DNA of 55,487 nt. Origin: a bacterium. Its GTDB lineage: Bacteria > Hinthialibacterota > Hinthialibacteria > Hinthialibacterales > Hinthialibacteraceae. A program made the translations under genes and the position numbers. Shown here one piece after another: positions 5,058 through 18,589 of this stretch. Within the stretch, counting starts at the first letter, position 1. Every line of letters starts with the position of its first letter. The DNA is taken from NCBI GenBank assembly GCA_963663405.2, contig CAXXSM010000035.1:1-55487 (forward strand). The letters run 5' to 3'. The notes beneath the pieces are model-generated. The model was not told where the DNA came from. It saw only the letters and a program-made list of their open reading frames with translations, and made no database searches.

Positions 5058-5142
5058 GTTAAGGGGAAGGCTTTTTCTTCCCTTTGATAATTTTCAGAAT
5101 GTAGCGCCAGGGTAGATGAAAAACCTTGCCCTGGGCATCCGC
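5058..5142 (+). repeat. Repeat family A, diverged full copy
   Basis: AAGGGGAAGGCTTTTTCTTCCCTT...GCCAGGGTAGATGAAAAACCTTGCCCTGGGCATCCGC. Confidence 0.8.
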
Positions 5143-6758: not shown

Positions 6759-7565
6759 TCAAATTACTCGTCTCTGACGTCTACGTGCAGATGTTTGCTT
6801 AGGTGGTATGCGAGACAATAAGACATCGAATACCAAGTGTTGATCTATTAGAAACGTGTCGTATTGATTCTCGATTGGCCCACGCCCATCTGTTTCGTGA
6901 GTCAGATCGTAGCCGACGATGCATTTAACAAATGCGTCATCAATCGTCTTTCTTTCAACTAGTCTATAAATTTCATCGCTGTTCTTATTATAATTTAATA
7001 CAAATTTTTCTAGTTGGCATGCTGACACGACACCTTGAACACCTTTCGGGGAATCGATTACATAGAATACAACGCAGCCGGGTATAACGTAGCCTTTATC
7101 CATCCAAGTATGGGTAAATCTTCTACAATCAGAACAAATTCGTATAATCTTCCTCAGTTGATCCTTGTCAATTTTCAGTTTAGATTTGCGATTTGCCTTT
7201 TTATGCTGGAATGCAGCAACTTTCTTGCCTTCTATTTCGTAGATCAGGTCTACTCCGTACACCTTTTCTGCTTGTCCACGGTGTGTAACAGTGATCTTAA
7301 CCTTTGTCCCCTTGATGTCGCGTTCCTTAACGTGAGGGAAATGAAATTGTCGTTCTTTTTTTACCATATTTTCCATATTTTCAAACGTTTCATTAAATGC
7401 TTCGTCAAGTTGTTGATATATAAAGGCTTCTTCATGAGGATAGTCCATTTCTTGATCTATAAGATTTAAGATAATTTGCCGTCGCGATACCGAATAGGTT
7501 TGCATTTTAATTTGTTCAATAGTCTCCAAGAGTTCATCGGGTTCTAGTTCTTCTAACATATTCAA
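6759..7565 (-). CDS. Hypothetical protein, possible PD-(D/E)xK-like nuclease
   Basis: AT-rich ORF with a GGAGA RBS; EKVYGVDLIYEIEGKKVAAFQHKK resembles an E..G.D...QxK restriction-endonuclease-fold motif. Confidence 0.55.
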   Translation of the reverse strand: MNMLEELEPDELLETIEQIKMQTYSVSRRQIILNLIDQEMDYPHEEAFIYQQLDEAFNETFENMENMVKKERQFHFPHVKERDIKGTKVKITVTHRGQAEKVYGVDLIYEIEGKKVAAFQHKKANRKSKLKIDKDQLRKIIRICSDCRRFTHTWMDKGYVIPGCVVFYVIDSPKGVQGVVSACQLEKFVLNYNKNSDEIYRLVERKTIDDAFVKCIVGYDLTHETDGRGPIENQYDTFLIDQHLVFDVLLSRIPPKQTSARRRQRRVI

Positions 7566-7603
7566 TCTCCTATTTACTAAATCAGGAATGATTTACAAAA
7601 AAT

Positions 7604-7635
7604 GGTGGGTCAAAAAGACGCGACCCACCCTACAT
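7604..7635 (-). repeat. REP family C single copy
   Basis: The reverse complement reads ATGTAGGGTGGGTCGCGTCTTTTTGACCCACC, nearly identical to the left REP at 17126. Confidence 0.85.
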
Positions 7636-7724
7636 GCTGGGTAGCAAGGGGAAGGCTTTATTCTCCCCTTGCATAATTTCCGGAACGTAGCCAGGGCAGA
7701 AAAACGCCTTGCCCTGGGTACCCG
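7636..7724 (+). repeat. Repeat family A, full copy truncating the IS110 transposase
   Basis: GCTGGGTAGCAAGGGGAAGGCTTTATTCTCCCCTTGC...GCCAGGGCAGAAAAACGCCTTGCCCTGGGTACCCG. Confidence 0.9.
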
Positions 7725-8091
7725 TGGTCTCCAATTGACGTTTCAGATCGAATCCACAGGGACCCGCTTCGTAGCAAATCCGTATAGGACCTGGGGCTTT
7801 CTTCTGAATGCTTCTTACAAAGCGTCTGATATCATGCGAGGTATTGTTGATGGTCATTGACTCCGGTTTTTTCCCGTTTGGAAAAATAATGTATAGCTGA
7901 TGATTCTTTTTGTGGGCATCTAATCCCACGTACGTTGTGGTATAATCTTTCATGACCGGCTCCTTTTCGTATGCGGCTCTGTGGCCTTTTGGTTATAATC
8001 CGCGATTCTAGGGATTTTTCTTCTCCCTATTACGTATCGGTCTATACCAATACGTCTTTACGATCGCGGAGCCGGTCGTTCCATATTGTCT
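7725..8091 (-). mobile_element. IS110-family remnant: non-coding left end (7954-8091) plus N-terminal DEDD transposase fragment (7725-7953)
   Basis: MKDYTTTYVGLDAHKK...CYEAGPCGFDLKRQL is the IS110 RuvC-like N-terminus; the upstream region is closed by a GACCGGCTCC...GGAGCCGGTC stem directly before the ATG. Confidence 0.85.
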
Positions 8092-8118
8092 ACATGTTGT
8101 TAGCTTGATGTAAATTTA

Positions 8119-8619
8119 TCAACTTGAAGAAGAGAAATAGAGGATAAAAAAGACGAGGGTATTGTGGAGGGCGTGGGCGATTGTGGTCAGGCGGTAGGCT
8201 TTAAAGAATCCTTCCCGGCGGCCAAAGAGGAAACAACCCGCTAGAATCCAACCCACGCCGATGTTCTGGATGACATACGCGGCGCCCGCCCGGATGTGGA
8301 TCAGCCCAAACCAAATCGCCGCGTAAAAAACGGCGTGCTGAGTGGGTTTCTTCAACCACTTGGTAAATACCATCGGCGCCCATTGGCCCACGATCGTCTC
8401 ATACAATGGGGCGCTGACCAGGATAAAATACGCGCCGATCAATCCTTTGTCTTGAATAAAAGCGTCAAACACAACCCGCGTGGATGAAAACTGCAGGGGA
8501 GCGATCAATAAGGAAATGAAACAATTAACGGCCAGCGCCGTCACTGCGAAGAATATAATTTGAGCCGGTTCGGACCAGCGGCGCAACGGGGGACAGTCAC
8601 CATCACCAAATAAAGGCAT
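8119..8619 (-). CDS. CPBP (CAAX/Abi) family intramembrane metalloprotease-like protein
   Basis: APLYET, WFGLIH and AHALHN motifs; hydrophobic. Confidence 0.75.
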   Translation of the reverse strand: MPLFGDGDCPPLRRWSEPAQIIFFAVTALAVNCFISLLIAPLQFSSTRVVFDAFIQDKGLIGAYFILVSAPLYETIVGQWAPMVFTKWLKKPTQHAVFYAAIWFGLIHIRAGAAYVIQNIGVGWILAGCFLFGRREGFFKAYRLTTIAHALHNTLVFFILYFSSSS

Positions 8620-8664
8620 TGTACTTAAATCTCTCTTAACAGGTCATGTCTATTTAAATAGAAA

Positions 8665-9097
8665 CCTCATGCGGTTTCTTTCATCGTAATTGATCAGCCA
8701 GTTGAAGTGATGGATACCTCCCTCAAGAACCGGCGCTTGGGGGGAGAATACGCTTCTTGACGCCTTGCTTCTCTATGATTGTTACTATACTGAGCGCGGG
8801 CATAATCTGAGCTTTTCAATCCATATTTAACTTTCAACGGGCTTGTTTCTGGTAATGAGAAACGAAGATTACGATCGCACAGAATATATATCAATCAGCT
8901 GGGTAGCAAGGGGAAGGCTTTTTTCTCCCCTTGCATAATTTCCGGAACGTAGCCAGGGCAGAAAAACGCCTTGCCCTGGGCACCCGCCGGTACTTGGGGG
9001 GAGAATACGCTTCCTGACGCCTTGTTTCTCTATGATTGTTACTATATCACTTCATGTGACTGAACTGTTACCATCATTCTAGTCAAACCGCATGAGG
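8665..9097. repeat. Nested repeat structure: 13-bp perfect IR enclosing 60-bp direct repeats
   Basis: CCTCATGCGGTTT (8665-8677) / AAACCGCATGAGG (9085-9097); direct repeats 8730-8789 and 8987-9046 differ at 4 positions. Confidence 0.75.
8898..8987 (+). repeat. Repeat family A, full copy
   Basis: Near-identical to 7636-7724. Confidence 0.9.
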
Positions 9098-9154
9098 AGC
9101 ATAGTGTTGAAACGGGGATGAATCAATCCATCGCTCAGTGACGCTCAGGAGGAA

Positions 9155-10582
9155 TTACTTCTTTTCTTTCGGTTTCCGGCGGGCGGCGCCGGTCTCCATC
9201 GCGGCGCCGGCGACAGCGTTGGACACCGATTCCACCACCCGGCGGTCAAAGACGCTGGGGATGATATATTCATCCGTCAGTTCGGATTCAGGAATCGTAT
9301 CGGCGATCGCCTGGGCGGCGGCCATTTTCATTTCCTCATTGATTCCCGTGGCGCGCACGTTCAACGCGCCCCGGAAGATACCGGGGAAACAGAGCACATT
9401 GTTGATCTGGTTGGGATAATCCGATCGGCCGGTGGCCATGATGCGGCAATGCCCCATCGCGATTTCCGGGGCGATTTCCGGATCGGGATTGGCCAGCGCG
9501 AAGACGATAGGATCACGTCCCATCGATTGCAGCGCCTCTAATGGGAATGTGTCGGGACCGGAAAGCCCAAGGAACAAATCGGCTCCTTTGGAAGCTTCGT
9601 GGATCGTCCCTTTTTGGTTTTCTGGATTGGTATTCTCCGCGAACCACCGTTTAGCCCGGTTCATCCCTTCCTCACGACCTTTGTAGACGATCCCTGATCG
9701 ATCAAGGCCGACGATATTTTTAACGCCCGCCCGCATCATCATTTTCGTGCAGGCGACCCCCGCGGCGCCCACGCCCAGGATGACCACTTTGATCTCCTCC
9801 ATGCTCTTTTGAACCAACTTGAGCGCGTTGAACAAGGCCGCCATGACTACCACCGCCGTGCCGTGCTGGTCATCATGAAAGACGGGGATATCGACCCGTT
9901 CCTGCAGCAATTCTTCGATCTCAAAACAGCGCGGCGCGGAGATATCCTCTAAATTGATTCCCCCGAATCCAGGCGTGAGGGCTTCAACGATTTGGACGAT
10001 CTCGAGGGAATCTTTGGTGTTCAAACAGATCGGAAAAGCGTCTATTCCCCCGAATTCCTTGAAGAGCATCGCTTTTCCTTCCATGACGGGCATCGCCGCT
10101 TCCGGGCCGATATCGCCCAATCCCAGCACCGCCGTGCCATCGGTCACAATCGCGACGGTGTTTTTCTTGATGGTCAGGTTATACACGGCGCTTGGATCTT
10201 TGGCGATCGCCATGCAGACCCGCGCCACCCCCGGCGTATACGCCATTGACAAGGCGTCGCGGGTATTGACCGGCACTTTATTCTCCACACTGATTTTTCC
10301 ACCCAGATGGAGGAGAAAGACTCGGTCCGATACGCTGCGGACTTCGATGCCCTCGACTTGCCGGACCGCTTCCACGATACTTTCCGCGTGTTCGTCTCCC
10401 CGCGCGTTCACGGTCAAGTCGCGCACCATGTGATCTTTCCCAACGCGGACGATATCAACCGCGCCGAGATTCCCCCCTTGTTCCCCAATCGCTGTTACCA
10501 CCTTTGCGAAATAGCCGGGATTGTTGGGCAATTCGATTCGAATGGTGATGCTGTGGCCTGGGCCGGTGGATAGATCCGTCAT
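9155..10582 (-). CDS. NAD(P)-dependent malic enzyme with N-terminal ACT domain
   Basis: AYTPGVA, VTDGTAVLGLGDIG, PVMEGKA, INLEDI, FHDDQHGTA, GVGAAG, TGRSDYPNQINN; ACT domain in the first ~80 aa. Confidence 0.95.
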   Translation of the reverse strand: MTDLSTGPGHSITIRIELPNNPGYFAKVVTAIGEQGGNLGAVDIVRVGKDHMVRDLTVNARGDEHAESIVEAVRQVEGIEVRSVSDRVFLLHLGGKISVENKVPVNTRDALSMAYTPGVARVCMAIAKDPSAVYNLTIKKNTVAIVTDGTAVLGLGDIGPEAAMPVMEGKAMLFKEFGGIDAFPICLNTKDSLEIVQIVEALTPGFGGINLEDISAPRCFEIEELLQERVDIPVFHDDQHGTAVVVMAALFNALKLVQKSMEEIKVVILGVGAAGVACTKMMMRAGVKNIVGLDRSGIVYKGREEGMNRAKRWFAENTNPENQKGTIHEASKGADLFLGLSGPDTFPLEALQSMGRDPIVFALANPDPEIAPEIAMGHCRIMATGRSDYPNQINNVLCFPGIFRGALNVRATGINEEMKMAAAQAIADTIPESELTDEYIIPSVFDRRVVESVSNAVAGAAMETGAARRKPKEKK

Positions 10583-10691: not shown

Positions 10692-10784
10692 GCTGGGCAG
10701 CAAGGGGAAGGCTTTTTTTTTCTCCCCTTGCATAATTTCCGGGATGAAGCCAGGGCAGAAAAAAGCCTTGCCCTGGGCATCCGC
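10692..10784 (+). mobile_element. Repeat family A, full copy with 12-bp target-site duplication
   Basis: AGAGAACAATCA at 10680-10691 and 10785-10796 flanks the element exactly. Confidence 0.85.
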
Positions 10785-17125: not shown

Positions 17126-17213
17126 TGTAGGATGGGTCGCGTCTTTTTGACCCATCCTCGATTTAATTCACTATAATCGGTGGGTCAGTAAAGCGCGATC
17201 CACCCTACATGAC
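17126..17213 (+). repeat. REP family C doublet (REPIN-like)
   Basis: GTAGGATGGGTCGCGTCTTTTTGACCCATC, AT-rich spacer, then GGTGGGTCAGTAAAGCGCGATCCACCCTAC. Confidence 0.9.
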
Positions 17214-18451: not shown

Positions 18452-18500
18452 AACACTATAAACTGAAAATTATATGGCCCGATAACAGTATAATCAGACA

Positions 18501-18589
18501 TGTAGGATGGGTCGCGTCTTTTTGATCCATCATCGATTTAATTCATTATAATCGGGTGGGTCAGTAAAGCGCGATCCACCCTACATGAC
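18501..18589 (+). repeat. REP family C doublet, direct repeat of 17126-17213
   Basis: Near-identical, including the spacer. Confidence 0.9.

Follow-up and report, generated by a model that had tools for sequence, protein, structure and literature searches.

Introduction

Elements of the IS1111 group within the IS110 family, e.g., ISEc11, ISPa11, ISKpn4, and ISPst6, are described as encoding a DEDD transposase with the domains PF01548 and PF02371 and as carrying subterminal inverted repeats (PMC11187229, PMC11208160), a short left and a long right end, and downstream of the gene a two-loop guide RNA in which the complement of the top strand comes first. These descriptions further include a promoter at the circle junction and, in case of ISPa11, REPs as targets. 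The lineage reported here shares these features, the promoter at the level of sequence and REPs as putative targets. It is set apart from the named IS1111 elements, as judged from their descriptions, by a 13-nt repeat of its own combined with an AG core and by its occurrence in soil and sediment phyla. In contrast to the described elements, the copy found in the window (the whole analysed stretch of 55,487 nt, contig CAXXSM010000035.1 of a member of the Hinthialibacteraceae) is a fragment without the RNA.

With IS621, a representative of the IS110 group, the lineage has in common the RNA-guided recombination at a 2-nt core (CT, i.e., AG when the opposite strand is read), a target loop distinct from the donor loop, the putative targeting of REPs, and guides of the dinucleotide handshake type, as described for IS621 in PMC13626964. 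IS621 differs in that its RNA is situated in a long left end and its subterminal repeats comprise only 2-3 nt, whereas the left end of the family considered here is devoid of a guide. At the protein level, the similarity of P0001, a protein nearly identical to the transposase fragment (see below), to the chains of IS621 and ISCro4 is confined to the C-terminal domain (E 1e-10 and 4e-13, respectively).

Two further systems resemble the locus with regard to the region in front of the transposase gene. In ISPpu9, the transposase, likewise of the IS110 family, has a structured 5' untranslated region by which its translation is blocked, an effect that in the present case is deduced from the fold; recombination at AG is a further shared trait (PMC12288879). 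ISPpu9 differs by its membership in the IS110 group and by a leader of which the bridge RNA is a part and which is under the control of the antisense RNA Asr9 and of Ssr9.

IS10 and IS50 are subject to fold-back inhibition, i.e., sequence from the element end pairs with the ribosome binding site, so that transcripts containing the end are poorly translated. These elements belong to other families and use other promoters; in our case, a transcript initiated at the junction promoter itself is predicted to have its first nucleotides at the stem base.

Identification of the Remnant

The locus is read on the minus strand throughout. It comprises the following features:

8619-8119, minus strand: CAAX-protease-like gene, upstream neighbour of the CATGTAG flank
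8090-8096, minus strand: left target flank CATGTAG, composed of left target bases and the core AG (8091-8090), the same 7 nt with which the local REP family begins
7954-8089, minus strand: left non-coding end of the element, 136 nt, complete compared to the family profile (nhmmer, profile positions 1-88, E 3.4e-15)
8085-8090, minus strand: GACAAT, -10-like hexamer of a putative circle-junction promoter; the flank hexamer TTTACA (8114-8109) lies 18 nt before it
8074-8086, minus strand: left copy of the subterminal inverted repeat, ATATGGAACGACC, whose inverse is present in the right end of each of 27 full-length relatives
8068-8077, minus strand: 5' arm of stem P1, GACCGGCTCC (anti-Shine-Dalgarno), from minimum-energy fold and covariation
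7954-7963, minus strand: 3' arm of P1, GGAGCCGGTC, which includes the Shine-Dalgarno sequence GGAG and adjoins the start codon (7953-7951), from fold and covariation
8009-8055, minus strand: two lineage-specific hairpins (8055-8032 and 8029-8009) within the central junction of the leader, from the fold; variable among relatives
7973-8003, minus strand: conserved stem P2, GCGG (8003-8000) with CCGC (7976-7973), which surrounds the loop letters TTA and CAGAG as well as a small distal hairpin, from covariation
7726-7953, minus strand: transposase codons 1-76, DEDD/RuvC-like N-terminus, start codon ATG at 7953, from homology to P0001
7637-7725, minus strand: MITE-like double-hairpin repeat of 89 nt in place of the remainder of the element, from BLAST matches in the genome
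7597-7636, minus strand: complete REP copy, i.e., CATGTAG, a hairpin (7629-7604), and a T run, terminator-like, from motif counts
6759-7565, minus strand: open reading frame of 268 aa downstream of the REP, for which a Pfam search up to E 0.1 gave no match

The fragment of the reading frame matches PF01548 with an E-value of 6.3e-6 and 26.5 bits, which is below the 29-bit cut-off. Its 76 codons are identical at 74 positions to P0001, a metagenome protein of 375 aa that carries both PF01548 and PF02371 and reaches 224.6 bits on NF033542 (cut-off 140), i.e., a full IS110-family RNA-guided transposase. The combination of a DEDD/RuvC-like N-terminal and a C-terminal Transposase_20 domain, which is characteristic of the IS110 family, is assigned to the fragment through its likeness to P0001, as the window retains the N-terminal 76 codons only. 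Domain match and identity to P0001 substantiate the view of the earlier note, made from the sequence alone, that this is an IS110-family remnant. The likeness to P0001 ends after codon 76, precisely where the MITE-like repeat starts. Considering that 74 of 76 codons are still as in the intact gene, the window copy appears to be a young, recently broken, and dead element of the IS1111 type.

No second copy of this element is present in its genome (82% complete), and searches of the 26 genomes of the order and the 35 of the phylum did not yield a full-length gene. Two apparently intact IS110-family genes of other lineages occur elsewhere in the genome of the window (C77:11919-12884 and C153:20282-21295), with 23-26% identity to P0001, as well as further IS110-family fragments on contigs C18 and C103.

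On the minus strand, CATGTAG (8096-8090) directly precedes ACAATATGGAAC (8089-8078). The earlier note had placed the end of the element between these two sequences, at an AG/CT dinucleotide. Left-end-like DNA is present in 7 of 60 related genomes, and the homology to the 12 left-end copies found therein starts at position 8089 with the sequence AC[AC]ATATGG. The dinucleotide before this start is AG in 11 of the 12 copies, while the rest of the preceding sequence varies. Because the 12 copies begin at the same base after differing flanks ending in AG, the proposed junction was right in both position and dinucleotide. Two public contigs, of which only the parts covering the stretch were interpreted, carry near-identical left ends at other sites, and the flank that they have in common with the window is restricted to TGTAG. 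The last two bases of the flank, AG (CT on the other strand), represent the crossover core. An exact ATATGGAACGACC occurs in the assembled genome only in the window copy.

Comparison with Full-Length Relatives

A protein-guided scan of species genomes yielded 80 loci, to which one metagenome locus (52% identity) was added, resulting in a total of 81 loci, and both ends of the element could be delimited in 27 of them. These 27 relatives have a length of 1463-1800 bp. The 13-nt ATATGGAAYGACC is set back by 3 nt from the left end, and its inverse by 1 nt from the right end. The non-coding end on the side of the start codon comprises 84-137 nt (136 nt in the window), and the right non-coding end following the stop codon 237-534 nt. 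AG is situated on the left flank in all 27 cases, and the right flank opens with AG in 23 of the 25 elements for which any right flank is available. The relatives delimited at both ends share 40-52% transposase identity with P0001 and do not include the right end of the window lineage itself. A variant of the window left end lies near one end of a contig of 1656 nt (run X3), a size that fits an element of approximately 1.6 kb.

The IS1111 group is described as recognisable by a left end that is short and a right end that is long, by extended subterminal repeats, and by an RNA that follows the gene (PMC11208160, PMC11187229). The 13-nt repeat falls within the range of 7-17 bp that is characteristic of the subterminal inverted repeats of this group, and the window keeps its left copy (8086-8074), the right one being lost. 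The combination of a short left and a long right end is displayed by the 27 relatives, the window contributing the left end only, and a guide RNA downstream of the gene is found in the relatives only. As judged from this comparison, the window remnant appears to be a member of the IS1111 group of the IS110 family that has lost its right end. From the layout of this group, a guide RNA is expected downstream of the gene and not in the left end. The lineage may already figure in the covariance models or IS lists that accompany PMC11208160.

Location of the Guide RNA

All guide functions of the relatives map to the right end. A conserved scaffold is located 35-200 nt past the stop codon, for which RNAalifold predicts two stem-loop domains with internal loops, and the right-end profile (HMM) was found downstream of the gene in 75 of the 81 loci. 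The same HMM gave no match in the 12 remnant loci of related genomes and no credible match in the genome of the window; a right-end copy is missing from the window and was not found in the assembled genome either. One profile match in this genome (C153, E 0.0067) is located inside a signal-peptide coding region and was dismissed as a chance match, and a search of this genome with an 18-nt right-end motif, allowing up to 3 mismatches, gave matches only at chance level.

In the target loop, complementarity between the 7 nt preceding CTA-TGCGA and the cognate right flank extends over at least 4 contiguous nt past the core in 17 of 24 elements, all except L023, L030, L033, L039, L079, L083, and L087, compared to 2% of 530 non-cognate pairs (permutation p<=1e-4). 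The opposite side of this loop repeats the last 2-4 bases of the left flank, followed by AG, with a mean run of 2.36 for cognate and 1.42 for non-cognate flanks (p<=1e-4). After that AG, base 1 of the left end follows in 26 of 26 and base 2 in 21 of 26 elements. These repeated left-end bases resemble the handshake dinucleotides reported for IS621 (PMC13626964). In the donor loop, NGTC complements the core G and left-end bases 1-3 in 16 of 26 elements, with N tracking C, A, or G at base 3, and ATATCAG corresponds to the right end plus core; it becomes ATAACAG in one element ending in ATAAC. The order found, with the complement of the top strand first, is the one reported for IS1111 (PMC11187229).

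The earlier note had proposed the left non-coding end as a bridge RNA of distinct architecture, in which the target-binding guide escaped recognition by eye. Such an RNA with unrecognised guide bases would agree with a left end that is strongly folded, conserved, and covarying, that lacks an Rfam match, and that occupies the position of the bridge RNA in the IS110 group proper (PMC11208160). Bridge RNAs and seekRNAs are recognised by loop bases that are complementary to both strands of target and donor and covary with them, but no such bases are found in the left end. Its longest match to the cognate target amounts to 4.65 nt compared to 4.71 nt for non-cognate ones (p=0.66), and to the left flank 5.09 compared to 5.08 nt (p=0.54), so that neither flank is matched in a cognate-specific manner; for the right end versus the target, the values are 6.96 and 5.69 nt (p=0.0005). 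Moreover, both binding loops are already placed in the right end, and what varies in the left end are plain hairpins, present in some relatives and absent from others, while the conserved loop letters of the left end are constant whatever the target. Among public sequencing runs, no RNA run was found that contains the stretch. We therefore regard a bridge RNA in the left end as highly improbable. The failure to find a guide by eye is explained by a left end without cognate complementarity and by guides that reside in the right end, and the supposed distinct architecture gives way to the layout of the IS1111 group. A search of Rfam returned nothing relevant for positions 7000-9200 (E up to 10) or for four full-length relatives (E up to 1). 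Most likely, the non-coding end is the leader of the transposase messenger and not a guide (bridge) RNA.

Promoter and Secondary Structure of the Left End

Circle junctions were built by joining the two ends of each element in silico (n=27). The joined ends contain TTGAC[A/G] and, after 16-18 nt, GACAAT, GACCAT, or CAGAAT across the junction. Among the 27 junctions, 19 reach a promoter score of 9 of 12 or more, and 26 reach 8 of 12 or more; of the controls, 2.1% of 1350 shuffles and none of 270 internal windows attain 9 of 12. In case of seven elements with a -35 hexamer located 2-3 nt nearer to the end, the -10 hexamer is shifted 2 nt further inside the left end. Junction promoters are known for the IS110 family, and the joined ends match those described (PMC11187229, PMC12288879). 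At the level of the hexamers and their distance of 16-18 nt, a circle-junction promoter (Pjunc) is present in the relatives, and the left end would hold its -10 half. Transcription is predicted from the hexamer positions alone to start approximately 7 nt past the -10 hexamer, which coincides with the first base of P1. In the window itself, TTTACA is located 18 nt before GACAAT; since one such site was found where 1.2 are expected by chance, the promoter-like site of the window is not significant on its own.

The 136-nt end folds with a minimum energy of -54.3 kcal/mol, compared to -27 +/- 3.3 for shuffled sequences (z -8.3; 0 of 200 shuffles as good). An alignment of the common core of 32 left ends provides a consensus structure in which 91.7% of the cells are paired and 13 of 22 pairs show compensatory changes; its covariation score was reached by none of 500 column shuffles, and slid controls are paired to 22-38%. 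The outer stem P1 (9-10 bp), formed in the minimum-energy fold of the window by GACCGGCTCC (8077-8068) and GGAGCCGGTC (7963-7954), is kept across the 32 left ends with compensatory changes in 4 of 9 pairs, and its 3' arm adjoins the start codon in most of them, L035 and L099 being among the exceptions with extra bases. The core further contains a short stem P1b, TCGTA with TACGA, and a central junction that carries zero to two plain hairpins. Stem P2 is paired in 99% of the cells and compensatory in 2 of 4 pairs, GCGG/CCGC being replaced by GTGG/CCAC or GTAG/CTAC. The distal hairpin P3 is variable, and the loop letters TTA and CAGAG between P2 and P3 are conserved. The left-end profile was found in 48 of the 81 loci, distributed over many phyla, and has no match in Rfam.

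These data refine the stems listed in the earlier note. The outer stem, which had been claimed to mask the ribosome binding site, is supported as to its pairing, the Shine-Dalgarno sequence in its 3' arm, and its covariation, and a block of translation would follow from this arrangement. Among the inner stems, ACGTATTGGT/ACCGATACGT (8055-8032) and TAGGGA/TCCCTA (8029-8009) do form in the window fold, but they are specific to the lineage and dispensable: they are absent from 17 of the 32 left ends, and in the public contigs of near relatives the two hairpins are skipped or replaced by 26 nt. The stem CCGCGAT/ATCGCGG exists in this lineage but is paired in only 68% of the alignment cells across the family, and it lies outside the minimum-energy fold of the window; its GCGG instead pairs downstream with CCGC as part of P2.

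The strand on which the fold acts has to be considered separately. The folds of the sense and the antisense strand do not differ in stability (mean -47.8 and -47.5 kcal/mol, respectively; the sense fold is better in 15 of 32 cases), and departures from the helices are more often C-A mismatches than G-U pairs. Due to these two observations, the fold might act on the other strand, either as an antisense RNA against the leader, of the kind on record for the leader of ISPpu9 (PMC12288879), or as single-stranded or double-stranded DNA, which would offer the recombinase a subterminal binding site or a hairpin. Five of 26 elements moreover have a P2-P3 region whose similarity to the reverse-complemented distal hairpin of the donor loop is above the level of shuffles (z approximately 1.7-3.4), but across the family a resemblance between the left end and the reverse-complemented right-end RNA, first seen by eye, does not exceed shuffles (mean 16.8 versus 15.4), and a search for an antisense promoter in the window found none. 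The outer stem has the Shine-Dalgarno sequence as its 3' arm, which in most left ends extends exactly to the start codon; this placement fits a role in the sense RNA, and it is solely on this coincidence of arm and ribosome site that the sense strand is preferred. We consider an action of the fold on the other strand unlikely and take the fold as acting in the sense messenger, where it would repress translation. The five elements with a similar P2-P3 region (L021, L101, L023, L051, and L083) may display the trace of an old inverted duplication between the ends.

Given the constant loop letters, it is tempting to speculate that the leader is a conserved riboregulator whose TTA/CAGAG internal loop is bound by the recombinase or by the right-end RNA, translation being released only if the guide RNA or the circle is present. 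We think that this extension of the leader model is rather doubtful; if it were true, the supply of the enzyme would be coupled to the supply of the guide.

Genomic Context and Loss of the Right End

As claimed in the earlier note, the flank CATGTAG is the start of a local REP family. Allowing up to 2 mismatches, CATGTAGGGTGGG occurs four times in the window, where 0.55 are expected, and the REP hairpin GGTGGGTCGCG...GACCCACC has 48 copies in the genome, preceded by AG in 38 and by the exact CATGTAG in 13 cases. As CATGTAG or AG precede the genomic REP hairpins, the flank of the remnant looks like a REP that was split after its seventh base. Such a split would fit a target composed of left bases, AG, and the REP stem. 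This comparison relates to one window copy whose right half-site is lost, and the two public left ends share TGTAG only; in the related genome G006, three of three sites with different surroundings follow one hairpin repeat. REPs of the CATGTAG family also occur as inverted, REPIN-like pairs (17130-17211 and 18499-18587).

The MITE-like double-hairpin repeat (approximately 85-90 nt) has 128 BLAST matches in the genome, and in the window its left end is situated exactly at the break of the transposase gene. Most of its copies run on into a shared segment, TGATTGATATATAC... A derivation of CATGTAG from this repeat was rejected, as none of 39 long copies is followed by CATGTAG. The block of IS remnant and MITE-like repeat lies between 7-nt direct repeats of CATGTAG (7630-7636 and 8090-8096), the right copy of which belongs to the complete REP. 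A simple insertion of the IS1111 type predicts only AG and the REP stem right of the remnant, but a complete REP including CATGT is present there. As there are four MITE-like copies in the first 11 kb of the window (5061-5141, 7637-7725, 8898-8986, and 10692-10783), our guess is that the complete REP was brought next to the remnant by recombination between nearby copies. A further repeat of approximately 55 nt (..GTAACAATCATAGAGAA.CAAGGCGTCA.GAAGCGTATTCTCCCCCCAAG..) occurs twice on the minus strand upstream of the CAAX-like gene (8735-8795 and 8990-9055), one copy abutting a MITE-like copy.

Left-end-only remnants are not restricted to the window. They occur in 7 of 60 related genomes that lack a full-length gene, and in the 12 remnant loci neither a right-end RNA nor a full-length gene was found. 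In three cases (L006, L008, and L020 in G024, G019, and G010, respectively) a host reading frame in the same direction follows the remnant. Together with the -35-like hexamer that the flank supplies at 18 nt in the window, this might suggest that the host has kept the left-end piece as a promoter and leader for neighbouring genes. Such a domestication seems very improbable in our view: the window copy is young, with 74 of 76 codons identical to the intact gene; the MITE-like repeat and the terminator-like REP separate it from the next gene; its promoter-like site does not exceed chance; and the remnants of the relatives have decayed to different extents.

Conclusions

Taken together, the locus is quite probably the dead left end of an IS1111-group element that inserted at CATGT-AG, the start of a REP, and later lost the end with the bridge (seek) RNA, its non-coding end representing half of a promoter, an inverted repeat, and a leader. 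According to this model, everything beyond codon 76 would have been lost after insertion, including the right end that encodes the bridge (seek) RNA. The core G and the first left-end bases would form the -10 half, which TTGACA of the right end completes to a promoter only in the circle; the first 2-3 bases of the left end would be recognised by the right-end RNA in donor binding and in the handshake, and bases 4-16 would represent the subterminal inverted repeat. From approximately base 13 to the start codon the end would serve as the leader of the messenger, in which the anti-Shine-Dalgarno arm pairs with the ribosome site and holds translation down.

The remnant is thus ordinary in the sense that it is another element of the IS1111 type, and its reading as a bridge RNA is unsupported. 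As the guide belongs to the right end, a remnant of the left end alone says little about target programming. For elements that combine a short left end with long subterminal repeats, the search for a guide RNA should be directed downstream of the gene. The description of this widespread lineage comprises its ends with the AG core, the location of the guides for target, donor, and handshake, the junction promoter, and a covarying anti-Shine-Dalgarno leader; it could seed an RNA family model and aid the annotation of elements and fragments in metagenome-assembled genomes.
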